Assembly: GCF_040938485.1 (NCBI RefSeq)
Contig: NW_027271164.1
Coordinates: 2,144,064-2,208,063, forward strand
DNA: 64,000 nt
Source of the DNA: Diadema antillarum
Taxonomy: Eukaryota
Direction: 5' to 3'
This document shows, piece by piece, positions 735 to 44,735 of the stretch. The position numbers were made by a program, and so were the translations under genes. Every line of letters starts with the position of its first letter. The stretch's first letter is position 1. The notes under the pieces were generated by a model. The model saw only the letters and a list, made by a program, of their open reading frames with translations. It had not been told where the DNA came from and ran no database searches.

Positions 735-3700
735 TGTTTGAGAGGAACCGCGCTTGTCTTGTTTTCTTAATTGAAAAGTTACTGATTTATCCAGAGAGTC
801 CAAGTCAATTGACTTCGTGCAATCACTTGTCCTTTTAGAATGAACTTGATCTATACTTGACTATTAAAGGTTGTCATACGCAAGGACTGCTTGTACAGCG
901 CAAGATATTCAGACTTTGGTCACAATTTGCAGACGGACCAATAAGTGAGCCAATGACAAAATGACGTCAAAGTTTAAGCAGGGATATGAACGCATGGAAA
1001 CGTAGTCTAGTATCTATAACTGACACAACTTCAAGCAACAAATGTCTTCAAATAGTTGGGAGTAGTTGTTGAAGCTGATCAATAAAATAAATGCATGCTG
1101 CACTTGAATGAGAAAGATTATTAATGACGACTTTTCGTTTTCGTTTCCCCTCCTTTTTTTTTGCAACTGGTCTATCATGGCAAGACTATTTTTAGTCCGA
1201 GTAGATGGTCGATTTAAGCAGAGGCGTACTTCTTTACAAAAGTTGTTTTGAAAAAAAAAGAAAACCGAATCTCAAACGGTCGTGAGAATAAATAAGTTTC
1301 ACAAAGGTCGAAGTCCGAAAATTGTTTGAATACTGACAACGCTCAAGCACATCCGAATCGGGCGCATACAGACTGTCGTCTTCTTTGATCACACTACAGA
1401 AATGGAAAATTTTACGGGCTCTGCGGCTTTGTCTGCCTCAGAAAGCATGACAATATTTTGAAACACTACATCATGCATGCAGTTAGTTGTAAGCTTTTTA
1501 CTTTGTCATTCCATGGGTGGGCTTTATTACACTGACATTGCAAGAAAACCAGCTTGCATACTGACAGTTATAGTTTAAATGTCAAACTATCAAATGAATC
1601 TAAACTGATGAAATGGTTTAAGACGACTTACGATATGTCCTACTACGTAGAACCGGTGTATGTATTCTAAAATATTCAGGTTTTATACACTTTGATTCTT
1701 GTAATTCTAATGAAGAGATATTCCAACAGCAGGCATCCAACATTGGTGCGCATCGTTATGGAATCATAGTTTTATAAGGCGACTACGATCTTAACAAAGG
1801 GAAGTTCCTGCCCGTTTTCTCTTGTTTGCATGGCTGTAGACCCTAATGTGCAATGATCTACTTCACTGTTTTATTGCTTGGTTATAGAAAAGCAACCTTG
1901 ATATTAAAAAGGACAACAGTATCCATAAGACTATGCAATGAGGACTTTGTAACTTGGATAGAAGAATTTATGCAAGCATTTATATTGATGTATATAGGGT
2001 AATTTGTCAAACAGTTGCAATTTATCGGGAGAAACCATAAAGCTAGTATATATGCTTTTTTTTAGAAGAGGGAAGAAGAAAGAAGAGAGAAGGATGGGAG
2101 AAAGACAAAAACAAGGAAAAAATATAGAAACCCACTTACTTAGGTGAACTTACCTATATATACACAAACAAACAAACAAACACGCACACACAGAGAGGAC
2201 AGTACAGTACACATTTCGCTAGCCTTCAATTAGATTGTGAATTTATTGAAAGAAACTCAAAACAACATCATACATAAACCCATATTCCATAATGTTTCCA
2301 CCTGCCCGCATGTATATTACACACTAATTGATTGTCTCATTTAAAGATGCACAATATGATACTCATTGATGAGCTGATCATTGCGGGGTGGGAAGAATGG
2401 TAAGGAAAAGAATCCCTGTCTAAAGCAACACGAAAAGACAGCAGTTGCCTTGGTTATGATTGATCTTAATGAGGATCACGATCAACTAGCAAAGTGACCA
2501 GTGATCTGGGCGTCTGATCGCAATAGTCAATATCAAAGTGAAGGTTCGCCATCATGCAGAAACTCTAGTTTTTCTTGTAAAGTTCTGAATACCCCGATGA
2601 GTTTTAATAAAGTCAATTAATGCAGTTGTAGTTTAAAGTTGTAATTCATAGCGTTCTCATTTTATCACTGTTTGATTCATTCATTATTCGTTCACGCATT
2701 TTATATTCATCGGAATACGATAGTGAATACATAACGCTAACAGACAATATCACCCATTCTCTTCTGTTCTACATTGTAAAGTCTGATGACTACTTTTCCA
2801 CCAAGGCAAATTTCCAACCACGTTAGAGTTGGCAACTGCAAATATAAATGTGTTTATTACAATTGTCATGGTTGAAATAAATATGATCTGGTATACTCCC
2901 TCTGCGACTACTCTCTGTGTAACAACGTTAAATTCTATGTATCATCATGAAAGATGTGATGGTGACCAGGTGTATATCATTCTGCATCTTATTGTTCCAG
3001 TCTTAAAGAATCGATGCAGGTTTTAATAGTGTATGACGTTATGGGAAATATATAATGTAAGAAAGTTTAATTTGTTGTGATCATGAATGTTCACATATCT
3101 TAGTTTTTTTTCTCTCTTTCTCTGAAAGGTGTTTACCTTTTAACCATTCATTCTACTATTTTAGCAAATTATGACATCAACAAACTTCAATGTAAATTGG
3201 ACATAATTATTATGTTGCATTACACAGTGAATAATTGCTGGACAAAATCAAAATAAAAACAAAACTCTCTAAGAAAACTGCTAGATGAAAAGGAAGAGGA
3301 AAGTATATTGACAATTCCTTTGGAATATCACCGTTGCAGAAGTTCTGTTTCTTTTTTTAGGATACTCCTTGTCAAGAAGAGATTTAGATTACTCTTCAAT
3401 CATTTGATACGTCGATCATTTCCACAAGTTCTGAAGTCTGAATAAAAAATACTTCGCGGTAGAATTTATTTCTCAGTTTATTTGCTCACTCAGGCCTTCG
3501 TTTAGAATTGTAATCTAAGAAATCTATTGACGTACTTTTATTCAATATACCAGAATGACCGCATGATGGTCGCGTAGCCCAGTTGTTAGAATCAGAAGGA
3601 CTTACAACTTATAGATAACTCATCAAATTTGAATAAAGATCAAGAAATTAAAAAAGAAGAAACTTAGTCATAGATGAGGAGGTACAGCCATGCAGAGATA

Positions 3701-4078
3701 ATTATGACCCATTATGACACATTACGACCAGTAAAGTCATGTTACTAAAACAATGGCTCGGGCTTGAACAGTGAAGGTTTATCATTAACTTTAGACTTTA
3801 GATTGCAATTTACATTACAACGGGGAGCTCATGAAACGTGTGATTGCTGATCTATGATAATAGGTCAATATCATTTATCGTTATTTCAGGCACTATTGTC
3901 TATTATACACTTTATGGATTGGAAGGTAATTCTGTTTTGTAGTTTTTTAATGCAAAAGTCAATAAGGAAACTAATTTAGGTACGTGAAAAAGTGGCTTTA
4001 TCATTCAAGTAAAGACATGTAGATGTACTTCGCTTTAATCGGCGAAGTGCATTCGAGGATAGTTGTAACTAATCAAGA

Positions 4079-4194
4079 TTAATTACAGGTAGGTTCATTC
4101 TTGTATTCCTCGAACGCCTGCTGCCATGCTGTCATCTCAGTCTTCCAGTCATCATAACTTTCCCGCCATTCCTTCTCAGTGTCACTAATGTCGC
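4079..4194 (-). CDS. Cholinesterase-like terminal exon: T-peptide/WAT-like tail GDISDTEKEWRESYDDWKTEMTAWQQAFEEYKNEPTCN, then stop.
   Basis: W-x6-W-x6-W heptad with F28, Y31 and Cys37, the same spacing as the vertebrate AChE T peptide (…RQWKAEFHRWSSYMVHWKNQFDHY…RC…). ctctttccag acceptor. Stop TAA at 4081-4079. Confidence 0.65.
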
Positions 4195-4919
4195 CTGGAA
4201 AGAGAGGGAGACAGGATGAAGCAAAGATGTGATTATCAAAATTAGCGCGCTTTCCTTTTATAGCTCACACTCGCATTCTGGTTTGTCAACCTGTGCGCCA
4301 ACCAATGACAAAACTAAAAAACGTTTTGGAGTTGCTTTTCTGCCGACACATCTTTTTTTTTAATGCATCTCATATTCTGAACGAATTCTGTGATTGATGA
4401 CATCTAAACTCTATTTCATAAAAACCAAGATGGCACATTCTGACTCTTTACCTTAGGAGACAATGTCGATGTTGAAGAAAAAATCGAAAAGGCGAAGATG
4501 CATTACATTATTCCAATTATTGGTGTGTTTCGAACTTGAATCAATGTTAGAACTCGATCATTAGCCTTTTTATACCATCTGTGCGATTACAGTCTGATTA
4601 ACGAATAAAGACAGAAGTCCAGTATCGAGAATCTACCTGATGCACTGCTCATCAGCCTTTCAGTCTTACACGTTTATAAAAAAAAGAAAATTTATTGTAA
4701 CGTGCAAAGGGGAGTCATCTACACTTAGCTATAGGGTTGATTGCTTAACGATATGGTAATAGCTTCAGATTATTGGATAAATATTAGTAAACATTTATGG
4801 AACATACGCACAGACACACCCACAGCATACAACCGCTTTCTACAGTTGAGATTCTCGAACACAACCTGTTAAATCTAACATATAGTATAATGAAGTGATT
4901 ATTCCCTCGAAAAAAATAC

Positions 4920-5101
4920 CTGTAAAAGCCACGAGGGATGGGAAGTAGTGGTTCCAGAAATGACACTGTCTTGCTCTGACAGCCCTCCCTGTAGGCAATC
5001 CTATGGCTATCTCCTTGTATGTGAGTTCAGGGATCGTGTACTCTGGCCAGGCGTACTGTCCTTCCAACGGGTCTGAATCCATGCTCGGCTTACTCGGATT
5101 T
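4920..5101 (-). CDS. Cholinesterase-like exon 9 (NPSKPSMDSDPLEGQYAWPEYT...RARQCHFWNHYFPSLVAFT).
   Basis: Follows TG with NPS (compare TGDPN). Conserved third-disulfide Cys in RxxxCxFW. tgtag acceptor and ACAG|GTATTT donor. Confidence 0.7.
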
Positions 5102-5361
5102 CTACAATACATATAATAGTTGCAATCCATTAATGCATTAAGTTATTGTTGTTTAAGTGCCTTCCTTAAACTGTCACATGCAAAATTGAATCAGTGCTTC
5201 TAAAGGCACTCAGAATTTAACTGATAAAGAATTTTGTCTCCAGTACAATACAAAAAAGAATAACATCTATCCAGAACTTTTCATCACAGTTTAGAAGTAT
5301 TTGTAACTTTTTAAGATATTAGTAAACTATTTCATTTTAGTGAATCAAATGGCTGGCTTAC

Positions 5362-5556
5362 CCGGTCTTGGCAAAGTTGGTCCAGAATTGCATCATTATA
5401 ACGGAGAGGGCGTTCTCCTCGTCCGTCATGTTGTGTCCTTTGACGTGGTAGAGCTCATCAATGAAAGGGACGCCCCACACAAAAGTCATTTCTTCTCCAT
5501 GTGCTGCGCCAAGCCAAGGAGTGTTGGGAGTAAGCCCTTCATACTCATAGAAGCTC
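5362..5556 (-). CDS. Cholinesterase-like exon 8 (SFYEYEGLTPNTPWLGAAHGEEMTFVWGVPF...MMQFWTNFAKTG), carrying the catalytic His.
   Basis: HG(E/D)E..FVFG motif and W.NFAKTG motif. GG|GTAAGC donor. Two adjacent candidate acceptors within 2 nt. Confidence 0.75.
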
Positions 5557-6051
5557 CTAGTATCAATCAATTGAGAAAAAAAAATAGTGACAGAAAAACA
5601 ACTGGTAGAAATGAACACACTCTGCTAAAGTGAGTTTAGAAAGTTTCTTACTGAACTTAAGTCTCTTACCCGTCAACCGTCACCCCCCATACTCTCTCTC
5701 TCTCTCTCTCTTAAAAAACAAACAAAAAACAAACAAAAACAAAAACAAAAAGAAAACATTTTGAAAATCATTATTGTCCACTTTGGGTTTAGGTTGCATC
5801 TGCTTAGGCTTTGAGAACGGCAACTTTTAGTTTGGCAATGTTGTATTCATGTGTTACGAATAAGTAATTTATGTATTGAAACAAGGCGCATTATGAACAT
5901 ATTTATATTTCATGAAATGATAATCCTCATTAAAAATGCTTTAGTACGTTCTGTAAGATCAAAATGCTTCACATTTCGGATATGAGGTAGGCATACTCAT
6001 GTTTCTGTATAACTATCACCGAAATGCAAGGAAGTAGTGGTAAGTCCATAC

Positions 6052-6497
6052 TTCGTAGGTACGTGGGTCATAAAGTACTGGTAGACGGGGCCGCCGTGTG
6101 ATGTATGTTCTCTAATGACGTAATCAGTTGGACAACCGAACATCAAATCTCCAAAGAAATCCACCACCGAGTTAAAGTAATCCGCAGTAATGTTGTCTGC
6201 AATACTCCAGTCAGTATACTCCTGATCTACAGAGTCGTATATGATCGCATCATCCAGGCCGTTGTAGAAAGTTAGCTGGAATTGAATGGAAGCAAGGTAG
6301 GTGGCTCGGTCGTAAGGGGGCGGTGTTTCGCTACCCCAGTAGTCAGAAAAAGATGCGTATGGTATCAAAGACCCCTCGTCCTTGTTGAAGCCCGCAACGA
6401 TTGGTACATGGGCAAAGTCCCCGTTGCTGTAGAGGTTTTTTGGTGTATCTTCGAGAAACGTACCGTCAACAGTCACTCGATACACAGCATCATATAC
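6052..6497 (-). CDS. Cholinesterase-like exon 7 (VYDAVYRVTVDGTFLEDTP...GFNKDEGSLI...FGCPTDY...YQYFMTHVPT).
   Basis: VDG(D/T)FL and KDEG (acidic triad residue) motifs. FGCP disulfide Cys. cccag acceptor and AA|GTATGG donor. Confidence 0.75.
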
Positions 6498-6801
6498 CTG
6501 GGCATTATGATATTGATAGTATGAAGAGAGGTCCAATTTACAAAGCAAAATTAGTAATGTGCGAACATCTTGTTGGACAAAGCATATCTCATAGCCATGG
6601 ATGGAACAGTACCAATGGCTGATAATCGTTTAAACATGATTTTAATGAAACTGTACAGGCAGCATTGTGGGTCGATGTATAACTATTCATCACCTCTCCG
6701 TCTATCTCATATCTTAATACTTCACATCACCTCTCCGTCTATCTCATATCTTAATACTTCACTAGCACCCCGATTGTTTAGGCAGAACTTACAGACACAC
6801 A

Positions 6802-6845
<44 letters not shown>
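6802..6845. repeat. (CA)n microsatellite in a cholinesterase intron. Others in the window: 15036-15065 (CA)n; 31197-31228 (GT)n; 45049-45108 (CA)n; 60893-60934 (CA)n; 8935-8972, 9625-9660, 31497-31562, 49845-49880, 52841-52882 and 59055-59125 (AT)n; 36823-36878 (ATCATT)n; 54465-54500 (TAA)n; 62103-62150 (GTCT)n/(GGCT)n.
   Basis: Read directly. Confidence 0.9.
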
Positions 6846-6847
<2 letters not shown>

Positions 6848-7359
6848 TATCCATTGACTCTTGTAAATGAGTGTTAATGTTGAACAGGGGCTTGGAAATT
6901 TAGCCGAACCTGAAAGCTATAATCTAGAAATTAAGCATGGAATTATGCACAACTAATTTGTGATCATATTGAAGCCACCTCCTAACATTACGTTGAATAC
7001 AGTACGTTTCAGTTCCCTATCAACAATGTCACTATAGTATAGCTGATTTTCTGAACATCTTGTATAGATGTAAACGGAAATTACTGTTGATTGCTAGCAA
7101 AGGAGGACTTTCACTAGGGGTGGAATGTTGTTGGTAATCAAGCCAAAATAGTTTTCAGTATTTTTTTTTTTCATATGAAGCGATGACATCATCTCGTCAT
7201 GTTGTATGAATGTTTTATGAGAAAATCTGAAATTGCATACTTTTTGCCATCCTGTTGGTTTTTAGCTACCCTATACATTGTAGTAAATTATACTGTGATA
7301 TTTGTCTTTGGTAGATGAGGGCAGTACATGGGTGCAACGCGTTGCCATGGCAGCCATAC

Positions 7360-7527
7360 CTCATCAGCGGCCTTCCTTAGTTTTTCAGCATCCTTCTCTC
7401 TGAGACATTCCACCAGAGCCTCAGACGTCGACGTGCTGCAATTCATGGCCACACCCAAGTTTCTCGACTTCTCAAGCTCTCTCTCCGGATCGTTGATGAA
7501 CGCCCAGTCAGCCAGGGCTGTTCCACT
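7360..7527 (-). CDS. Cholinesterase-like exon 6 (SGTALADWAFINDPE...NCSTSTSEALVECLREKDAE...).
   Basis: Conserved SG after the active-site exon. C...C disulfide loop with CLR motif. tattcag acceptor and GAG|GTATGG donor. Phase 0. Confidence 0.7.
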
Positions 7528-8119
7528 CTGAATAAGTAAAAGAGACTCAATTAGGTCACTAGAATGTATCCACAGGAAACATGAACAGAAAACAGCAGAT
7601 GAACTAGTGAGCAATACGAACAAGAATATCCGTAGCAACTGACATGACCCACATGTAACTCACATCACGAAACACCCACCAAACATTGCGAAGATGCATC
7701 AGCAGGCTAATTAGCTTGTTCTAGTGAATGAAACAATGTGCACATGCAAATGTTCACATTGGCAAGTATACATGTACCTTTAAAAGATATCCTGGCTCGT
7801 GAGAACATGACGCTAAAGGAGAGCAGTTTGTCAATTACTAGTATTATTTCCCAATACATTTTATCAACATTTGATGCCGCCATTTAGCTTTCTCAATAAG
7901 TAAATTTTGATACTGAACACTATCAATGAAATTAATTGAAGTCGTGTCATGGTACTTGCAGTCTAATACCGTGGAAGTTCTCAGACTGGCTAATTCTTAG
8001 ACCTATATAACATTATGTACGTATGTCATTCTTATACAAACTCTGATGGTGCACTTGATTCTTTTTGATTTTTTGTCACAGTAGTTTTTTTTTTCTGGTC
8101 AAATAAACAAGTATGATTA

Positions 8120-8389
<270 letters not shown>

Positions 8390-8930
8390 TCATAATAAAT
8401 GCACGGATAGATCCTGTAAAGATTAACTGGCAGACTTTATAAAGAGAAAGGAAATAGAAAAACAGATATATATAGAGAGATAGTAACTTGTTATCAAGCT
8501 CTTTACCGAGCTCTTTTCCTTCCATTTGTTTTGGGAGTTAAAGGAATATGTTTATGATAATAAACTAATAGTTTTGTAAGAAAATTTCGGAAGAAGAATT
8601 AACATCTCGGAGTTCAAAGATGTCATTCCATTGTTCTTCGAATAAATCTCGATTCAATGAAAAAAAAAAATTGTTATCAAAATTATGAGACTCAATATTC
8701 AAAATGCATGGCCGAATTCAGAAAGATTCAGTAATCATGCTTTAAAGCCAACAGAAAGTTTATGCTTTAGGTGCATTTCACAGAGTGAAATCATTGACTC
8801 GAGGTATCTTGATATAACTACTAGCCAGTATGATGCTAAGAGAGCGTTATAACTCACGTCTGATCATTAGAACGTCAGTTTGGATGAGAACTGCAGTAGT
8901 GACTACATTTTTATTGAAGTACATGTGCGC

Positions 8931-8977
<47 letters not shown>

Positions 8978-9382
8978 AAATATAATGTTAACATAAACAT
9001 TATATATATCTATATAATTATTATGTTCAGAGCAAATGCACTTCAATAAAACTGTAAATATATATACCTTGATTACAATTTAAAGCATTGTGTATAAACT
9101 ATGTATGTGTTTCTGTTTAGTCTTACCATGGAGGTACAAAAATTTTGTACCTCTATGGTCTTACATTCTTAAGGAAATCAGTAGACATATATTTTTTTTT
9201 TATTACGGATGATATCTGAGATATTACCATTGAATCCTGCCACATCTTGCCACCCTACTGAACTGCATTCAATGTAATTATTTAAACAAAATTCTAGTTG
9301 ATACATGAAATCAAAGCATACATGTTATATCAAAATTTAAATACCAGATACCAATTTCATTCTGATACCTGGGTATTATTAC

Positions 9383-9460
9383 CTTCAATGTTAGTATAGA
9401 CCCACTTGAGAGCTGCCACCTGATCCAGCATACCAACATTACCAGGAGCTTCTTCATCAC
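9383..9460 (-). CDS. Cholinesterase-like exon 4 ([26 protein letters not shown]).
   Basis: PGN(x)G(L/M)LDQ...AL(K/Q)WV motif. ccag acceptor and gtaata donor. Frame continuous with exons 3 and 5. Confidence 0.75.
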
Positions 9461-9623
9461 CTGGTAGAAAATGGAATTGAAATGAGTTATTACTTGAAAT
9501 ACAGGCGTAGAAAGCAATGTCAGGAATGACTGGTTAGCTTTATTTCTGAATTGATTCGTATAACTTGCGAAAATCTCTCCGTTTTTATATTTATTAACAG
9601 CTGTTTATTATATTGAAGTACTG

Positions 9624-9669
<46 letters not shown>

Positions 9670-9908
9670 TTTTTTTTTTTGGAGTGGGGGATATATGCCT
9701 TGATTTTGCTTGTAGTCTTTTTTTTTTGTTTCCTTTGAGAGACAACAATGGCTGTTTTAGATCCATTGGCAGGCTGTATGTACATACTGTATTTTAGTCT
9801 TTGGCTTCTATATTCCATTCTGAATGTACTGGTCATGCATGATATAAACAATTGTGACAAAAAGCATCATTCTTTTCTTTTCTATTCATATAAGAGATAA
9901 GAACTGAC

Positions 9909-10068
9909 CTGTGGTGAAAAAAGAAAAAATGTTCAGGCGGTAGTTGATAGTTACGATTATGACGTCACCAACAGAAACCAATGGGACGCCGCTGAGTTCC
10001 ACTGTCATCGCGGTTCCAATGGAGAAACCGCCACCATGAATAAAGACCATGACCGCCGCATCGTTAAT
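9909..10068 (-). CDS. Cholinesterase-like exon 3 (INDAAVMVFIHGGGFSIGTA...VIIVTINYRLN).
   Basis: Oxyanion-hole HGGGF motif and NYRL motif. aag acceptor and CAG|GTCAGT donor. Confidence 0.75.
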
Positions 10069-10656
10069 CTTTATCAGTCAAAAAGATATTGATAATTCAT
10101 GTCTATAACTTTGTATTTCTTGTGGAATTATTATTCATATCGCAGTGAATAACATTTACCACAGACAAAAGTATCACAAACGAATTTCGATTTTATATCT
10201 CTTTAAGATCTATAATGTTTGTTCCATGTTATAAGTGCTGTCTGGGGCAAATTATTTGTATAGGGCCCCATTTCTCTCTCTCTCTCTTCTTTCGTTCTTT
10301 AAAACAACAACAACAACATAATTTCGAAGACGTTGATCTAGAGGGTTGACATTATATGATAAAAAAAGAATGATTAATTTCCTCTCCATAGTGTCTAACA
10401 AGACAATATAGTTTAATATGGCATCAACAGAACATATCTGTCCTACTGAGTGGACGAAAAGTGATTGAAAAAAGGAATCTCTGAGACAAATCCATTCACT
10501 CTGAATGAAATCCTGAGTATCCAACGAAGGGCGATATGCTTCTAAAGCTGTAACCCCGCCGTTTTGACACCGGCGAAAAGTGAAGCCAACAATATTGATC
10601 ATAATTATTATCATACAGAGAGAGAGAAAAAAATAATTGTCCTAGATGAATCCTAC

Positions 10657-10842
10657 CTTTGGATTAGGAGCAAATACGTTTAGATACAGACAGTCTTCTG
10701 ACATTTTCTCGGGAGCCGGGAAAAAGTCAAATACGCCTTGTTGACACACAGCTTCAAATTCCGTAGCGTTCCTTTCTCCTTCCCATGACGTCATATTTGT
10801 AGGCGGGGCGAATCTCTCAGGAGGGGCTGCATAAGGTACCCC
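10657..10842 (-). CDS. Cholinesterase-like exon 2 (GVPYAAPPERFAPP...EAVCQQ...EDCLYLNVFAPNPK).
   Basis: Canonical carboxylesterase type-B N-terminal motifs GxPYAxPP and EDCLYLN(V). cag acceptor and gtagga donor. Phase 0 to 0. Confidence 0.8.
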
Positions 10843-11204
10843 CTGTACATTTATAGACATTAAAGACGAATTACAACTAAACAAAGTCTGAGGTAATGAT
10901 AATGCCCATGCCTCCATAGAAGTTCAGTCTTACCGTGAGGAGGGTTTTACTGTGGTTACAACATGACTAGATAAGCTTATTCTTCAACTCTAATGCATCC
11001 CAAGCAATTTCACCTCATTGGTAAACCTGTTCGCTATGATTCACTTATTTACCAGTGCTGTAGTAATTGCAACGACTAGCATGAAACATCTTTAGTCATC
11101 ATGACTATTTACAAATGTAAACGATGCTTAAAGAAAATGGAGAGACTGTTGCATGGATCACTCGCCTGTAAGATAAGTCTTCTCAATGGGGCATTCTTAC
11201 GGGT

Positions 11205-11690
11205 GCTGTTCGTTATTCCGAAGGTCCGTTATTCCAAAGGTTCGTTTATTTCGAATGTTCGTTAATCCGAAACACACAAATTTCCTATACCTAGAGGTTC
11301 GTTAATCCGAAAATGAAATAGGGTTCGCTATTCCGAAGGCTCGTTTATCCGAAAATGAAATAGGGTTCGTTATTCCGAAGGTTCGTTAATCCGAAAATGA
11401 AATAGGGTTCGTTATTCCGAAGGTTCGTTGATCCGAAGTGATATAGGGTCCGTAACGATCGAACCTTCGGAACGACGAGATTTGTTTCATTTTCGGATTA
11501 ACGAACCTTATTTCATTTTCGGATTTACGAACCTTCGGAATAACAAACCTCACCACATTTTCGGATTAACGAACGCTCGGAATAACAAATCTTCGGAATA
11601 ACGAACCTTCGGAATAACGAACCTTCGGACTAAAGAACCTTCGGAATAACGAACCTTCGGAATAACGATCTGTAACCCATTCTAACACCT
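11205..11690. repeat. Palindromic minisatellite. Tandem ~21-22-bp units (ggttcgttattccgaa / ggttcgttaatccgaaaatgaaatag) are followed, from about 11455, by the same units in reverse complement (cgaaccttcggaataacga).
   Basis: Read directly. Absent from the homologous position of copy A (about 190-300), so it is an insertion specific to copy B. It can form a long hairpin. Confidence 0.7.
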
Positions 11691-11955
11691 GCTGCAAGAA
11701 TGTATACTACATGCAGTGTGCTTAGAAGTAAGAATGTATACTAGTATATTTGGAAGTAAGCATGGTAAGGCTGTATTACTGCGCTAAGGGTTAAAAATGT
11801 AAACTGGTGTACTAAGAAGCACATAAGAATGTAGAGATACTACATGGTGTACTAAGAAATGAGAATGGCTATCAGTGTACTCAGTGGAAGTCAAATAGAC
11901 CTACAACTCCACTTAACAAAGCTGGCCCTTATTTTGTTTTTGTTTTTCAACTCAC

Positions 11956-12120
11956 CAAGAAAACGTCGACATCTCGAGTCTTGTTGATGAACTTGTTTTC
12001 ACTGAAAGTCACGGTCTTTCCTACCAGAGTTCCTTCTTTCACCATAACTCTCGGATTCTCAGCATTCACTGGTGCGAAAATGGCAAAAATTGCCAACAAA
12101 GTCCACAATAGCTTCATCAT
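11956..12120 (-). CDS. Cholinesterase-like gene copy B, exon 1 (MMKLLWTLLAIFAIFAPVNA signal peptide plus mature N-terminus).
   Basis: ATG at 12120. GTGAGT donor after ...DVDVFL. Phase 0. Confidence 0.7.
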
Positions 12121-12167
12121 TTGAGAGGAACCGCGCTTATCTCGTTTTCCTAATCAAAAATCACTGA

Positions 12168-12174
12168 TTTTATA
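12168..12174 (-). promoter_or_regulatory. Possible TATA box (TATAAAA on the minus strand) about 50 nt upstream of the copy-B cholinesterase ATG.
   Basis: Reverse complement of 12161-12180 reads tctgaatataaaatcagtga. Copy A has GATAAAT at the homologous site. Confidence 0.3.
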
Positions 12175-13354
12175 TTCAGAGAGTCCAAGTAATGTGACTA
12201 CGTGCAATCAGTTGTCCGTCTAGAATGAACGACAACTATGCTTGCCTAGGATTGTCCTACACCCAAGAACTGTTTGTATAGGGCAAGATATTCAGACTTT
12301 GGTCACACTTTGCAAACGGACCAATAAGTGAGCCAATGACAAAATGACGTCAGTAAGTTTTAGCAGAGATATGAAGACATGGAAACGTATAGTCCAACGT
12401 TATGATTATCTGAAGCAACTTTAAGCCACAAATGTCTTTAAACAGTTCGGAGTAAATTTGCAGCTTATCAATTCCAAAAAGATACTGCAGTCGAATGAAT
12501 AAGATTGTTCAAATAATTATGTCGAGTTTTTTTTTTTTTCAGTTCTGTATTACTGGACTTATTTCAGTCTGACCACAATTATGGTCAATTTAAGCAATGA
12601 CCTTCTGCTTCACAAAGATTGTTTGAACAAAAAAAAAGAAAAAAAGAGGAATCACAAGAGTATGGAAACAGTCGTGAGAATAGATATGTTTTGACAAAGG
12701 TCGAAGTCCGAAGATTGTTTATATACTGACAAAGCACAAAGCTATAGAGGAACTGAATAGGGTCCATTTATTATTGTCATCTTCTTTGATCACGCCACAG
12801 TTGTGAAAAATTTTGCAGGCTGTGTCCTTCTCTGCCTCAAAAGGCAAGCAGGAACATTACATGACTTTAATCATATGGGGGCTCTTCATGTAACTGACAT
12901 TACGAAACTAGCGTTCATAGTTTTACTGACAACTCTCAAATGCGTCCCAAATGATGAAATCATTTATGATGACTCATAATATGCCCTACCACGTGGAACC
13001 AGTGTATGTATTTTAATATATTCATTCAGGTCTTATATGCGTTGATTCTTGTAACTTTGATGAAGAGATATTCCAACGGCAGGCATACAGCATAGGTGCT
13101 CATCGTAATGGTATCATAGTTTTATAAGGTTTTTACGATCTTGGCAAAGTAAAGTTCTGCTTATTTCCTCTTGTTTACATGGCTGTAGTCCATAGTGTGC
13201 AATGATGTACTTCATCATTTTGTTGTTCCATTATATAAATATTACCTTGATATTCAAAAGAAAAAAAACCGTATTTATGTAAAATTATGAAAAGAAAATG
13301 TGATATCTGAAGTGGGAGAGACGTACTAAAAGGCTAATAAGCGTACATAGAATG

Positions 13355-21045: not shown

Positions 21046-21183
21046 CGCCTCCTCGAGTCGCAGACAGCGAGTGGGGAAGTATCCGAAGCAGTTGCCATGC
21101 TAGCAGACAACTTGTGGAAGGAAGCGATGGGCGAACTCTCCAGGATACTCACTGTACCCATCAAGAACATCCCACCGGGAAAG
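21046..21183 (+). CDS. PARP4: PARP4-like exon C, PARP regulatory helical domain (RLLESQTASGEVSEAVAMLADNLWKEAMGELSRILTVPIKNIPPGK).
   Basis: Aligns to the PARP alpha-helical domain (…MIWAEALGHLEHMLLKPVNRISL…). cgacag acceptor and AAG|GTAAAG donor. Confidence 0.7.
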
Positions 21184-26989: not shown

Positions 26990-29215
26990 TCCGGGCGGAA
27001 GTTTTGTTTTTGTCGTTGTTGTTTTTTGTTTTTTGTTTTTTTAAATCACCCAACATAATGTGGTTGTGTTGTTTTGGACGCTGTCCTCTCTAGATTTTAG
27101 AGAAAACGGATGGTAAGGAAAGACGAGGCTACCTTGCGAATCATTCATGCGGAACACCAAGAAGTCAATAAAAGAGATACAACCCCCGGATGGTCGGGCG
27201 GAATTTTCCCTGGTGGTCGCCATAAATGGACGTACACTTCAAGTCCCTCCGACCTCCGACACACCCCAGTAATTTTCACAAACTCTATTAAACTTGAAAA
27301 ACCGGAGATAAAAATAAATGATAATGTAGTGAAATATCAACAAAGTCAGAAATTTTTAGGTCTCACTTTTGATCAAAAATTAACATGGAATACACACATA
27401 AATGATGTTGTTGATCGTTGTAAGCCCAAAATAAATATTTTAAAGAGTCTGGCGGGAACTACATGGGGTAACTTTTCTAAAACCCTTCTTATGGTGTACA
27501 GAGCACTGATCAGGTCTCTTCTCGACTATGGATGTGAAGCTTATGAGTCCGCCTCCGAAAGCTCAAAAAACCCACTGGATTCCATCCAATATCAGGCTCT
27601 TCGAGTATGTGCTGGTGCAGCTCCCGCCACATCTCTAGAATCCCTTCAAGTAGAAATGGGAGAACTCCCCTTATGCATCAGAAGAAAGATGCTGACTACA
27701 AAATACCATGCGTCTTTGACGAGAATCGCAAACCATCCGGTATCACAAAGCACAAAAAACTGCTGGCAATACGAGTATATGAAAGAGAAAAATTCACGTA
27801 AACCTTTCGGAGTTAGAATTCAAAGCGCAAATATCACAACAAAACTCGAACCTCTCACTCCCCCAGAAATCCCCTTCTGGCACTTAAGCGAAATCAAAAT
27901 CTCCTTAGAGCTAACTGAGTGGCTCAATAAAGACGACAACCCCTTAATTCAAAAACAATGGAGCCTAGAACTGATCAATTCCAAATGGAAACATCAACTT
28001 CACATATTTACTGATGGATCCAAATTGCCAAACGAAGGCAATTCAGCTGCCGCCTTTTACGTGCCATCACTTCGTTATTCCCAATGCAAAAGATTACGTG
28101 ATCACACATCATCATATCGAGCAGAACTATCTGCAATCATCCTCGCCCTAAACTGGCTTGAGCAATTAGACCTCCACACAGGAGCTGTCATATTCAGCGA
28201 TTCGCTGAGCTCACTTAAAGCCATCAAATCACAACCGTACGACGACAACTTCATCACTGAAATCAGGACAATTGTCACTCGTCTAGAATATAAAGGCACG
28301 GACATCTCACTCGAATGGATTCCGTCACACTGTGGAATTCACGGCAATGAAGCCGCTGATTCCCGAGCTAAAAAAGCCTTGACGAAACCTATCGAAATCT
28401 ACAACGACCTTAGTTTTTCAGAGATAAAGTCAGTCCTTGTAACTAAGTATAAAGCAGAATGGCAAAGTAAGTGGAACAACTCAACCTCCTTTCTAAAAAC
28501 CATCCAATCATCTGTAAATTTTCAGCCATTCACATGTCATCTTTCCAGACAACATGAAATGATTATACACAGGTTGAGAATGGGCTGTCTCGGCCTTAAC
28601 TATGATTTAGCAAAAATAGCAAAACACCCCACAGGAAACTGCCCCTATTGCCCCACCCCTGAAACAGTTAAACATTTTCTAATAGAATGCCCGAAATATA
28701 CAATAGAAAGAGCCATGTTAATGGCAGAAACCAACACAAATCGTGACTCTGATATTATGAAACTTTTAGCGTCTCAAAATCGAAATATTCAAAATTCCAT
28801 AATCACATTTGTGTACAGGACAAATCGTTTGAGTCAAGGATAAGCTTGACGAACCTTAAAGATTACAATGTAGTATTTTCATAATGAAGTGTAAAGTAGA
28901 AAATTTATTTTGTAAAATTTGTAAAACAGTGAATTATTGATATTATGTGAATGTGTATTTGTATGATCTCAGATGTATACATGAGTAGGTATGTGTGTGT
29001 ATATAGGCATATACACACATGCATATTACTGAGTATATTATATGCCGCAGTATGTTAAGTATTACTGTATATTAGTATTTGGAAGATTAGTGTATGTCTT
29101 ATTATATCAACATTAGAATATGTTGAAGGTATAGGCCTACCACCAGTGCACCTATCTTCATCATTTGCACCCTTGATTCTGCCCACAAATGTTCGCTACA
29201 TACATATTAAAAAAA
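26990..29215 (+). mobile_element. 5'-truncated non-LTR retrotransposon (LINE) in the PARP4-like intron. It keeps the RT C-terminal region, RNase H, a CCHC knuckle and the 3' UTR.
   Basis: The 577-aa ORF at 27110-28843 has RT motifs (FLGLTFDQKLTWNTHI…, YRALIRSLLDYGCEAY), an RNase H motif (HIFTDGSK…YRAELSAI…IEWIPSHCGIHGNEAAD) and a C-terminal Cys/His motif (CPYC…HFLIEC). The upstream RT motifs and any ORF1 are missing. Confidence 0.75.
27110..28843 (+). CDS. Retrotransposon pol-like ORF (partial RT, RNase H, CCHC).
   Basis: See the mobile element above. Single uninterrupted ORF. Confidence 0.75.
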   Translation: MVRKDEATLRIIHAEHQEVNKRDTTPGWSGGIFPGGRHKWTYTSSPSDLRHTPVIFTNSIKLEKPEIKINDNVVKYQQSQKFLGLTFDQKLTWNTHINDVVDRCKPKINILKSLAGTTWGNFSKTLLMVYRALIRSLLDYGCEAYESASESSKNPLDSIQYQALRVCAGAAPATSLESLQVEMGELPLCIRRKMLTTKYHASLTRIANHPVSQSTKNCWQYEYMKEKNSRKPFGVRIQSANITTKLEPLTPPEIPFWHLSEIKISLELTEWLNKDDNPLIQKQWSLELINSKWKHQLHIFTDGSKLPNEGNSAAAFYVPSLRYSQCKRLRDHTSSYRAELSAIILALNWLEQLDLHTGAVIFSDSLSSLKAIKSQPYDDNFITEIRTIVTRLEYKGTDISLEWIPSHCGIHGNEAADSRAKKALTKPIEIYNDLSFSEIKSVLVTKYKAEWQSKWNNSTSFLKTIQSSVNFQPFTCHLSRQHEMIIHRLRMGCLGLNYDLAKIAKHPTGNCPYCPTPETVKHFLIECPKYTIERAMLMAETNTNRDSDIMKLLASQNRNIQNSIITFVYRTNRLSQG

Positions 29216-34927: not shown

Positions 34928-35403
34928 GTAAGAAAATAGCCGATTCATGGGATCTTCTCACTTGAGAATGACAGTATGGGTTATTCAACCGCATACCTCG
35001 CTAGTGTGTACGTTTTAGTGATTCTAGTTTGTAATTGATTTGAATGCAGTATAAATGTAAATTTTAGTTTCCTTTAGAGCTTCAGGTGGAGCCCGCAGGT
35101 GGAGAGGCACAATTTTGAATCTAGTTTCATATAAAATGGTCACGTCAGTTTATAACATAAACGTATGAAAGTTGTTTCTAGTGGAGGTGACGAAAATTTA
35201 GCTAGATAAACCATGTAGCTTTTCAAAAGAAAGTTTACAGATCTCTCTGATAATGTTGACATTTGTTACTTTCTTGTGAGGATATTTGCTCCTTTACGGA
35301 AGCATTGTTCCACACATTTTTTCTTGAAAAACCAAATCACATCGGGATAAAAGTAGCAGTGGGAATAAGTTCACAAGATATGTTGTTATTTTCAACCCAA
35401 CAG

Positions 35404-35590
35404 GCTTACATGGTGGTGTTTTACCCAGAATTCCAAGTGAGTGCAATCAAGAGCCCGGAAGTTGTCATTATGTTGGATCGCTCTACGTCAATGAAGGGAG
35501 AACCTATGAAAGACGCAAAGAAACTCGTTCACATGATCCTGGAAAATCTACCCCCGGGAAGTCGATACAACCTCATCGTCTTCGGAAATG
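35404..35590 (+). CDS. PARP4: PARP4-like exon N, start of the vWA domain (AYMVVFYPEF…VVIMLDRSTSMKGEPMKDAKKLVHMILENLPPGSRYNLIVFGN).
   Basis: MIDAS-like D.S.S motif (DRSTSM). Aligns to …VIICLDCSSSMEG. caacag acceptor and ATG|GTATTT donor. Confidence 0.85.
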
Positions 35591-35842
35591 GTATTTGACA
35601 TTCCCTAATTCCTGATCAAATTATTTGTTGTACCTTTTATTACGTTGTTGATGTAAAGCAATGGTACATTTAACGCAGTCTTCCTTGATAATGCAATGTG
35701 GATTAAATATTCAAACGAGTTCAATTTCATTCCAAAGAATTGTTTATTACAGATCTAAAAAAAAAAATGAATGAAAAAAATGTGATTAAAAGTGTGCATG
35801 GCTGAACGACACTTATCCTTCAACATATCCTCTGTGTCACAG

Positions 35843-42583: not shown

Positions 42584-44330
42584 CTGTCAATGTGTTATTG
42601 ATGAAGGATTCCAAGGGAGAGAGCGGCAGCTCAAACCACCGAGTGAATCACAAAAACACGATCGCATGGTTCGCATAGAATCTCGAGAAACACAGCAGCC
42701 CTGCGATGCTCCGATACCATCGGCTAAAGCCATGGACGCTACACAGACTCTAAAGACGGAGGAGCTAGTTTCCCCAACACTCCGAGATGTTGATATGGAT
42801 CAACTTGCAGATCAGCTGGAATTGTTGTCTCCGACGGAAGACACACAAAAATCATTTCTTGCACATGCAGAAGAGGCGTGTGCGCTCAAAGAATCACCTG
42901 TCGACGTCATGGAGCTTTCGGAGGAGGTTTACTCTGCCGATGAGCCTGAACCTGCCTACATGGTAGAATCTATTCAAGAAATTCAGCTAGTTGAAGATGT
43001 AATGTCTCCTGTCCTCTGCTTAGCTGAACCAGCTAGTAGGTCGTTGGCCTTTTCATATGAAACCGAAGCTGCATACCTTGAGCCCGTGGAAGAACTTCAG
43101 ATCTGTGAGGAGGTACAGGAAGTGTTGTCTCCTGTCCTGGAATCGAGCGTTGATTCGTTACCTTTGATGCTAGCAGAAGTTGAGTCTGTCACAGAGCTGA
43201 GGAAAGAAGTGGCAGAACCTATGAGATTGGAGCAACGCATGGAGAAAAGGTTAGAGTTGGCAGAACCTGTATTAATGGCGAAAAAGTTAGAGTTGACAGA
43301 ACCTGTAATGCTTCAAGAACGAATGGAGACACGGGCAAAAATGGCAGAACCTGTTATGATGGCGAAAAAGTTAGAGTTGGCAGAACCTGTGATGCTGGAG
43401 GAGAAATTGGCGTTCGCAGAACCTGTGATGCTGGAAAAGCATGTAGAAGAAAAGTTAGAGTTGGCAGAACCTGTAATGCTTCAAGAAAGAATTGAGACAC
43501 CGTTAAAGATGGCAGAACCTGTAATGATGGCGAAAAAGTTAAAGTTGGCAGAACCTGTAATGCTGGAAGCTCGAATGGAGACACGAGTGAAAATGGCAGA
43601 ACCTGTAATGATGGTACAACACATGGAGGAAAAAATGGCGTTGGCAGAACCTGTGATGATGGAGCAACATATTGAGGAAAGTTTAGAGTTGGCAGAACCT
43701 GTAATGATGGAGGAAAAGTTGGCGTTGGCAGAACCTGTAATGCTTCAAGAACGAATGGAGACACGGGTAAAAATGGCAGAACCTGTAATGATGGTACAAC
43801 ACATGGAGGAAAAATTGGCGTTGGCAGAACCTGTGATGATGGAGCAACATATTGAGGAAAGTTTAGAGTTGGCAGAACCTGTAATGATGGAGGAAAAGTT
43901 GGCGTTGGCAGAACCTGTAATGCTTCAAGAACGAATGGAGACAAGGGTAAAAATGGCAGAACCTGTGTTGATGGCGAAAAAGTTAGAGTTGGCAGAACCT
44001 GCGATGCTGGAAGAACGAATGGAGACAAGATTAAAGATGGCAGAACCTGTAATGATGGTACAACGCATGGATGAAAAAACGGCGTTGGCACAACCTGTTA
44101 TGATGGAGGAAAAGTTAGAGTTGGCAGAACCTGTGATGATGAAGGCACATATAGAGGAAAGATTAGAGTTGGTAGAAGCTCCCGAGTTGGATCAAGTACT
44201 TGATGCTACCCCAGCTTTGGAAGCCGATGACATCCTGCCAAAACAACAGAAGCTCGCTCCAGCAAAGGAAGATCTCGAAAAGACAGAGGCCTTCGACATA
44301 ATCACAAGAATTTTGCAAGTAGGGCATCAG
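42584..44330 (+). CDS. PARP4: PARP4-like giant exon W. Acidic N-terminal part, then about 30 tandem 12-aa repeats of the form (K/E)(L/M)(E/A)LAEPVM(M/L)(E/Q)E(K/R), then …ILQVGHQ.
   Basis: Continuous ORF (42666-44396) with ccacag acceptor and CAG|GTAAGG donor at 44330. The 36-bp DNA repeat has a 180-bp higher-order period. Confidence 0.6.
43230..44160. repeat. Coding minisatellite: 36-bp unit (gcagaacctgtaatgatgg…), about 25-30 copies. The 180-bp higher-order units are near-identical (for example 43560-43740 versus 43740-43920).
   Basis: Read directly. It produces the long artefactual antisense ORF 43354-44091. Confidence 0.85.
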
Positions 44331-44735
44331 GTAAGGAGCAAGAGCAGTGGGAAAAAAAATCGATTTCAAATTGCAGAGTATGTGCACCCATCTTAAGTCA
44401 TTAACATTGGAACAAACAGAAGCAGAGCTAGAAATTCCTTCATGAATTGTATCTTCCTAACAAGAATCAGTTCACGGAGTAACCGTCATACTTTACTCTT
44501 TGTACCACCGAAACAATAACCATGTAACCATCGTATTCAGTACCATGGCTCACTTAGTGCAACTCTGGCTCCCATGATCATTCATGAGCTGTACCATCAC
44601 GTCTGCTTCGAACAGCAAATGCTCTCTAAATATTTCATGACTGCAGAAGTTTTTCATTTACCGCATATAGACAGTGCACATAATATTGAATGAAAATACG
44701 AATCCAAACTTGATTATCCTGTACCATTCATGCAG

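Follow-up and report, generated by a model that had tools for sequence, protein, structure and literature searches.

A cholinesterase-like gene of Diadema antillarum ends in a T-peptide exon and lacks the choline-binding tryptophan

Introduction

The T peptide, or WAT domain, is the C-terminal tail of one form of the vertebrate cholinesterases, both acetylcholinesterase (AChE) and butyrylcholinesterase (BChE). Outside vertebrates, nematode ACE-1 is a true AChE that has both the choline-binding tryptophan and a T-type C-terminus. In echinoderms, the survey of the Strongylocentrotus purpuratus family by Johnson and Moore (2012) reportedly described blurred boundaries between carboxylesterases and cholinesterases and analysed the oligomerisation domains; we found nothing specific in the literature on a WAT or T peptide in echinoderms or on a cloned sea-urchin AChE. 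Here we describe a cholinesterase-like gene of the sea urchin Diadema antillarum, which lies in a stretch of 64,000 nucleotides (positions 2,144,064 to 2,208,063 of contig NW_027271164.1, assembly GCF_040938485.1). This whole stretch is called the window below, and all coordinates refer to it.

Our analysis indicates that the gene probably encodes a secreted, non-cholinergic, oligomerising type-B carboxylesterase of a large, tandemly duplicated echinoderm 'cholinesterase-like' family. Because the product ends in a genuine T-peptide homologue and has lost Trp84 (Torpedo numbering) and most of the gorge residues, an enzyme that is probably not a dedicated cholinesterase, yet has an oligomerisation tail, is the best reading of the locus.

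Results

A ten-exon gene for a type-B carboxylesterase

Read from window positions 3500-12800, the gene occupies 12120-4079 on the minus strand. Its ten exons join just as a first-pass annotation, made from the letters alone, had described them, and every intron is GT...AG. The coding sequence of 1815 nucleotides gives an unbroken frame of 604 amino acids plus stop, so that the annotated gene assembles and its stated length of 603 is corrected to 604. The parts of the gene, all on the minus strand, are as follows.

4079-12120, minus: whole cholinesterase-like coding span, assembled and translated (10 exons, 604 amino acids)
11956-12120, minus: exon 1, predicted signal peptide (residues 1-20, 12061-12120) and mature N-terminus, from the translation
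10657-10842, minus: exon 2, shortened omega loop Cys88-Cys106 (10690-10746) without Trp, from translation and alignment
9909-10068, minus: exon 3, oxyanion-hole motif IHGGGF (Gly130, Gly131), from translation and alignment
9383-9460, minus: exon 4, from the translation
8228-8346, minus: exon 5, FGESAG with the nucleophile Ser211 (codon 8303-8305), aligned to Torpedo Ser200
7360-7527, minus: exon 6, Cys266 and Cys277, from the translation
6052-6497, minus: exon 7, acid Glu333 (6375-6377), variable gorge-lining segment SLIPYASF and Cys414, from translation and alignment
5362-5556, minus: exon 8, His460 (5499-5501) within AHGEE, from translation and alignment
4920-5101, minus: exon 9, Cys552 and the last catalytic-domain helix (AlphaFold2 helix 549-567), phase-1 donor G/gtattt, from the translation
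4079-4194, minus: exon 10, T peptide (WAT-like) of 38 amino acids plus stop codon, from translation, profile searches and AlphaFold2 helix 571-598

By inspection, the hydrophobic N-terminus MMKLLWTLLAIFAIFAPVNA is a predicted signal peptide; the AlphaFold2 confidence (predicted local distance difference test, pLDDT) is low at residues 15-19. The product has six N-x-S/T sequons and seven cysteines, at 88, 106, 266, 277, 414, 552 and 603. A pseudogene or a chance open reading frame was ruled out by the intact ten-exon frame, the canonical splice sites and the 98% identity to an independent RefSeq model.

The product matched Pfam COesterase (PF00135) with 440.2 bits (cut-off 27; E = 1.7e-131), residues 22-555 covering positions 2-515 of the 515 in the profile, that is, the whole domain. 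All of the carboxylesterase/cholinesterase hallmarks that had been claimed for the gene were found in the translation: IHGGGF, FGESAG (Ser211), NKDEG (Glu333), AHGEE (His460) and three pairs of cysteines (88/106, 266/277 and 414/552), which fall at the conserved disulfide positions of the alignment, the bonds themselves being predicted. The triad Ser211/Glu333/His460 aligns with Torpedo S200/E327/H440, and Gly130, Gly131 and Ala212 of the oxyanion hole with G118, G119 and A201; Glu199 (Torpedo numbering) is retained. By sequence, the product is a type-B carboxylesterase, far beyond chance.

The best solved relatives in a search of PDB sequences were Torpedo AChE (E = 6.6e-98; 34% identity), followed by BChE and human AChE, and where the PDB chain was a T form, the alignment ran on through the tail up to its Cys. 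The AlphaFold2 model, computed from an alignment of 89 sequences, reached a mean pLDDT of 94.9. In a Foldseek search, the E-values for AChE and BChE (31-35% identity) and for human CES1 (32%; E = 2e-54) were nearly equal. Sequence and model together suggest that the catalytic domain is about equally distant from AChE/BChE and human CES1.

A T peptide on its own exon

Exon 10 encodes GDISDTEKEWRESYDDWKTEMTAWQQAFEEYKNEPTCN, in which W10, Y14, W17, W24, F28, Y31 and C37 are the positions of interest. The first-pass annotation had quoted this 38-residue tail exactly, with its three Trp residues, the aromatics at 28 and 31 and Cys37, and had likened it to the vertebrate AChE T peptide. As the score of the single sequence against Pfam AChE_tetra lies under the cut-off, the tail was tested apart from the catalytic domain, by means of a profile made from an alignment of 30 echinoderm tails and searched against all PDB sequences. 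The matches were the WAT chain of 1VZJ, the WAT/PRAD complex (E = 3.3e-10), human AChE (4.3e-8), Torpedo AChE (2.5e-7) and BChE (2.6e-6); the next match lies at E = 0.33, and all better ones are cholinesterase T peptides. In a set of 1.84 billion representative proteins, the profile matched 61. Those with a name or sequence that allowed placement were esterases of echinoderms or T exons of vertebrate AChE/BChE, and two of the high-scoring matches were unrelated repeat proteins. Furthermore, all 30 echinoderm tails match PF08674 at E <= 0.01 (best 1.7e-9), and it is the sole family common to them.

The physical features of the tail agree with this. Of the seven aromatic positions in the Torpedo T peptide it keeps six, and it keeps Cys37 as well; on a helical wheel its aromatics lie on one face, within 120-220 degrees. 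The hydrophobic moment is 0.366, compared with 0.368 for Torpedo and 0.15 +/- 0.08 for shuffled sequences, and AlphaFold2 predicts a single helix over residues 571-598. Apart from the single-sequence Pfam gathering score, every sequence-level test gave a T-peptide result. By these comparisons, the tail is a genuine T-peptide (WAT) homologue.

The intron in front of the tail tells the same story at the level of the gene. In vertebrate ACHE, the first codon of each of the T, H and read-through C-termini begins with G. In Diadema, a phase-1 intron splits the codon aligned to T-peptide residue 1 (aca g/gt...ag/gc gac, slashes marking the junctions), and 'cholinesterase 1' of S. purpuratus (homologue P0007, locus L001) has an intron of identical position and phase (gca a/gt...ag/aa acg). 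A contig with the mammalian AChE T exon reads ccgcag/ACACGCTGGAC (ccgcag/AC ACG CTG GAC), also phase 1 in codon 1; since the protein and the read-through open reading frame diverge just before Asp1, this is the only junction compatible with an AG. Because position and phase match in Diadema, S. purpuratus and the mammalian T exon, the tail is homologous at the exon level and not convergent. Thus the likeness that had been read from residue spacing is borne out as homology by the tail-only profile and the shared intron, and the last exon is, on this sequence evidence, orthologous to the vertebrate AChE/BChE T exon.

At the S. purpuratus locus L001, the T exons of two tandem paralogues (7742-7858 and 21059-21175) differ at 1 of 117 nucleotides, and the introns upstream of them are strongly diverged. 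This near-identity is a sign either of gene conversion or of very strong constraint acting on the exon.

A short omega loop and a depleted gorge

The omega loop Cys88-Cys106 is CQQGVFDFFPAPEKMSEDC, 19 residues with not a single Trp. Its Torpedo counterpart, Cys67-Cys94, has 28 residues including Trp84, and the present loop is therefore 9 residues shorter. It is certain that the loop contains no Trp, as had been noted for this part of exon 2, and no alignment puts a Trp at the choline-binding position; in three dimensions, the Trp84 site may nevertheless hold an aromatic residue.

The AChE gorge has 14 tabulated aromatic residues, of which BChE keeps 8 (PMC3045457, Table 1). When the product was scored against AChE by alignment, only 3 of the 14 positions were found to be aromatic (F114, W233 and Y432). 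Replaced or deleted are Y70, Y121 and W279 of the peripheral site, F288 and F290 of the acyl pocket, and F330, F331, Y334, Y130 and Y442. By the strict standard of AChE and BChE, both the choline-binding Trp84 and most of the aromatic gorge lining are missing. In the 31 echinoid paralogues closest to the gene, the gorge positions that line the pocket vary more than random columns (P = 0.005), and there is no variation at the nucleophile Ser, the His and one oxyanion Gly.

The echinoderm family and the tandem copies

The homologue set, from which the identifiers beginning with P are taken, consisted of the best 120 matches from 5.8 billion proteins and comprised echinoderms, hemichordates and amphioxus. 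Trp84 was absent from all normal-length echinoderm and other deuterostome matches among these 120, and their loops, 11-24 residues long, vary freely in sequence. A W-x6/7-W-x6/7-W tail was present in 83 of 116 homologues, all 83 of them echinoderm and drawn from all five classes. These two counts make the Trp84-less, T-tailed state the norm of the family, and the rarity that the first-pass annotation had implied for the combination was overstated. No Trp84-bearing echinoderm cholinesterase turned up among the retrieved homologues, no search aimed at one having been made.

The C-termini of the remaining members are hydrophobic H-like peptides, transmembrane anchors or xDEL-type signals. As the ends differ between members, the family has a modular set of C-terminal exons, like vertebrate ACHE. 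In four Amphiura filiformis proteins (P0050, P0058, P0062 and P0063), the chain continues beyond a T-like peptide and ends in ...SRDEL or ...SRNEL, which joins a cholinesterase-type tail to a carboxylesterase-type signal resembling those for endoplasmic reticulum (ER) retention. Asteroid, ophiuroid and crinoid tails (for example P0040, P0047 and P0074) read W-x6-W-x7-W, with one extra residue (WKYTDMADW) by which the third Trp would be shifted around the helix, and the asteroid tails have no terminal Cys. The catalytic Ser or His has been lost in P0071 and P0079 of Patiria miniata, in P0144 of Apostichopus, where Arg replaces the Ser, and in P0170. Both Patiria proteins have Ser changed to Ala and His to Asn, together with a transmembrane segment and a cytoplasmic tail, and this loss of catalytic residues and gain of a membrane anchor marks them as neuroligin-like derivatives inside the family.

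The next tandem paralogue of the Diadema gene starts 3.3 kb downstream and reaches into the window with its first exon.

573-734, minus: exon 1 of the next tandem paralogue (tblastn, 92.6% identity to exon 1); the rest of the gene lies beyond the window edge

The translation of this exon is the N-terminus of XP_071499740.1. The two copies are 81-84% identical in nucleotides across promoter, exon 1 and intron 1 (paralogue region 573-1122), and the upstream block common to both contains TGACGTCA. At the protein level, the Diadema tandem copies are 95-100% identical in the C-terminal third, against about 72% in mid-protein, and in XP_071499740.1 the motifs HGGGF and FGESAG read HGGSF and FGVSAG, changes that correspond to G119S and E199V (Torpedo numbering). 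In S. purpuratus, at least three such genes stand in tandem.

Two modelled C-termini at one locus

Two RefSeq models of D. antillarum correspond to the gene. XP_071499741.1 ('cholinesterase-like') is 98% identical to our product without a gap (593/604) and uses exon 10. XP_071492945.1 ('acetylcholinesterase-like', P0126), the model at the window locus, is 100% identical over residues 26-567. The two models come from different contigs of one assembly, which look like haplotigs of a single locus. XP_071492945.1 ends in ...TGIFFEGIITSLYYMLDLTGCVRESQL (window 4920-4840), the read-through peptide being GIFFEGIITSLYYMLDLTGCVRESQL.

4840-4919, minus: start of intron 9 read through from exon 9 past its donor, (G)IFFEGIITSLYYMLDLTGCVRESQL plus stop, the C-terminus of XP_071492945.1

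Judged from its sequence, this end could be a weakly supported gene model or a real isoform paralleling AChE-R. Exon 10 is intact behind a strong acceptor (ctctctttccag), and its peptide is identical in the model from the other D. antillarum haplotig and differs by one residue in the homologue from D. setosum. Given an intact exon that is used in the other haplotig's model and encodes a conserved peptide, the read-through model does not refute the T form.

Other features of the window

Long (TG)n and (TA)n microsatellites occur in introns 6, 4 and 3 of the gene (6805-6850; 8940-9020 and 9620-9680). Intron 1 contains a foldback element of about 480 bp (11200-11680), in which 16-nucleotide units (TTCGGAATAACGAACC) make up two halves in inverted orientation; its arms reach 98 nucleotides at 85% complementarity. 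Since it is absent from intron 1 of the tandem paralogue, it is probably an insertion like a miniature inverted-repeat transposable element. Further along the window, on the plus strand, there are three unrelated features: a fragment of a retroelement that includes an RNase H domain (27110-28843; E = 7e-15), an exon-like open reading frame in which a von Willebrand A domain begins (35263-35598), and a 576-amino-acid open reading frame of repeats such as AEPVMM...KLELAEPVML, which had no Pfam match (42666-44396).

Discussion

If the product is the secreted carboxylesterase proposed here, it would leave the cell as a glycosylatable alpha/beta-hydrolase with a complete catalytic apparatus, as its predicted signal peptide and sequons suggest. 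Its substrates would be non-choline esters, given a pocket without the determinants of choline-ester specificity, and specificity may have diversified between the paralogue copies in a manner resembling arrays of detoxifying or metabolic esterases. The tail would form an amphipathic helix, one face of which is lined with Trp and other aromatics, and would have a Cys close to its end. Helix and Cys603 could then give disulfide-linked dimers, and tetramers or anchored forms might assemble around a proline-rich partner, as in BChE and AChE. The first-pass annotation had offered two possibilities, a non-cholinergic esterase or an adhesion-type protein, either one with an oligomerisation tail. The esterase is the better reading, with no Trp84, a gorge poor in aromatics and a true T-peptide homologue; the adhesion-type protein is not supported, since triad and oxyanion hole are complete and a membrane anchor is absent.

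Several points weigh against a secreted, non-cholinergic, oligomerising enzyme. Its basis throughout is sequence comparison and predicted structure. The AChE_tetra match that had been named as a check on the tail was found, but it is borderline: PF08674 scores 22.3 bits on the tail alone (E = 1.1e-4) and 16.4 bits on the whole protein, below the gathering score of 25. XP_071492945.1 starts at Met26, has neither signal peptide nor T exon and contains no exon 9-10 junction, so the use of exon 10 at this locus is argued from the allelic model and family conservation. The short loop retains Phe95 and Phe96, and Phe96 stands 10 residues before the closing Cys, as Trp84 does by an ungapped count; with Phe96 in this register, some choline-ester activity is possible. 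One MAFFT alignment indeed places a Phe at position 84, gap placement in the loop being arbitrary. Loss of the Trp does not prove that choline-ester activity is lost. In addition, to our knowledge no PRAD-bearing partner of the ColQ or PRiMA type has been described in echinoderms.

The protein might be a working cholinesterase in which Phe95 or Phe96 serves as the cation-pi partner of choline in Trp84's stead; its top PDB sequence matches are AChE and BChE, it keeps Glu199 and has a T peptide, and the register of Phe96 from the closing Cys and its placement at 84 in one MAFFT alignment suit such a role. In human AChE, moreover, aromatic substitutions of Trp86 are far better tolerated than aliphatic ones. 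We nevertheless regard this as unlikely, because only 3 of 14 gorge aromatics are left, with Phe288/290, Tyr70/121, Trp279, Phe330/331, Tyr334 and Tyr130 replaced or deleted, because the loop varies freely between paralogues (11-24 residues), and because dozens of paralogues per genome with hypervariable pockets fit detoxifying or metabolic esterases and not a synaptic enzyme. Similarly small is the chance we give to a T exon that is unused or rare at this locus, with intron-9 read-through yielding the main product, like vertebrate AChE-R. XP_071492945.1 speaks for it, being our product over residues 26-567 and then the read-through peptide, but the same model is also without a signal peptide, which suggests thin or partial evidence behind it. 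Furthermore, the other haplotig's XP_071499741.1 uses exon 10, the exon is intact with a good acceptor and a peptide conserved in that haplotig and in D. setosum, and 83 of the 116 homologues are modelled with a T-type tail.

Two other explanations seem to us very improbable. A non-catalytic protein with an adhesive or structural role, comparable to neuroligin, gliotactin or thyroglobulin-ChEL, would have precedent in relatives that went that way (Patiria P0071/P0079 and Apostichopus P0144), yet the Diadema protein keeps Ser211, Glu333, His460 and the GGG/Ala oxyanion hole and has no hydrophobic segment after residue 566. Likewise, hardly anything is left of the idea that the tail resembles a T peptide by convergence or chance: it is short and biased in composition, and its single-sequence Pfam score is below the gathering threshold, but below E = 0.33 the PDB matches of the tail-only profile are all cholinesterase T peptides, six of seven aromatic positions and the Cys coincide, and intron position and phase are those of the mammalian T exon.

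A non-cholinergic carboxylesterase with a T peptide also invites a broader and more speculative idea, which we consider doubtful at present: that assembly of T peptides with proline-rich partners predates cholinergic function and is independent of it, that echinoderms routinely tetramerise or anchor non-cholinergic carboxylesterases with a PRAD-like partner, and that T and read-through 3' ends occur on the same gene, as in vertebrate ACHE.

The single gene matters little; it is already in RefSeq as 'cholinesterase-like' and 'acetylcholinesterase-like' and is typical of its family. The family-level points are useful. Three points may be new or under-appreciated, namely how generally echinoderm esterases without Trp84 have the T-type tail, the conservation of the T exon, as an exon, from echinoids to the mammalian T exon, and a possible T/read-through alternative at one locus. 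Since each echinoderm T-type tail that we retrieved sits on an enzyme that cannot be a classical cholinesterase, a tail for tetramerisation and anchoring does not mark its bearer as cholinergic. The question that follows is what, if anything, T-type tails bind in echinoderms, in which we know of neither ColQ nor PRiMA. For echinoderm genes of this family, 'acetylcholinesterase-like' names are misleading. Echinoderm 'cholinesterase' activity serves as a pollution biomarker (PMC7922589), and that activity may stem from a mixed population of enzymes.

Comparison with known systems

With vertebrate AChE-T and BChE (PF08674, 1VZJ), the Diadema protein shares the alpha/beta-hydrolase fold, the Ser-Glu-His triad, three disulfide positions and a tail of 38-40 amino acids that has a 3' exon to itself, preceded by a phase-1 intron. 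Within the tail, W-x6-W-x6-W, the F/Y positions, Cys37 and the hydrophobic moment are alike, whereas Tyr20 of the vertebrate peptide is Glu20 in Diadema, where one residue comes after the Cys, against three in the vertebrate peptide. The catalytic domains differ more deeply: the Diadema protein has no Trp84, a loop 9 residues shorter, 3 of 14 gorge aromatics, neither the acyl-pocket Phe residues nor a peripheral site, and about 34% identity.

Human CES1 is 32% identical and lies at a similar structural and sequence distance, and it too has an acidic residue after His-Gly (HGEE in Diadema, HGDE in CES1). Vertebrate carboxylesterases also have no choline-binding Trp and form multigene tandem arrays. 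CES enzymes end in an HXEL ER-retention C-terminus and have no T peptide, in contrast to the WAT-like helix that is predicted to end the Diadema protein. CES-like ends do occur among its relatives, since some hemichordate proteins finish in xDEL or xxEL and the Amphiura proteins combine a T-like peptide with ...RDEL.

The closest likeness is to the echinoderm cholinesterase-like paralogues, such as S. purpuratus P0007. Within echinoids, these are 60-98% identical, they have the exon-10 boundary, the short Trp-less loop, the tail and the tandem arrangement in common with the Diadema gene, and they differ from it only in the detail of the pocket-lining residues.

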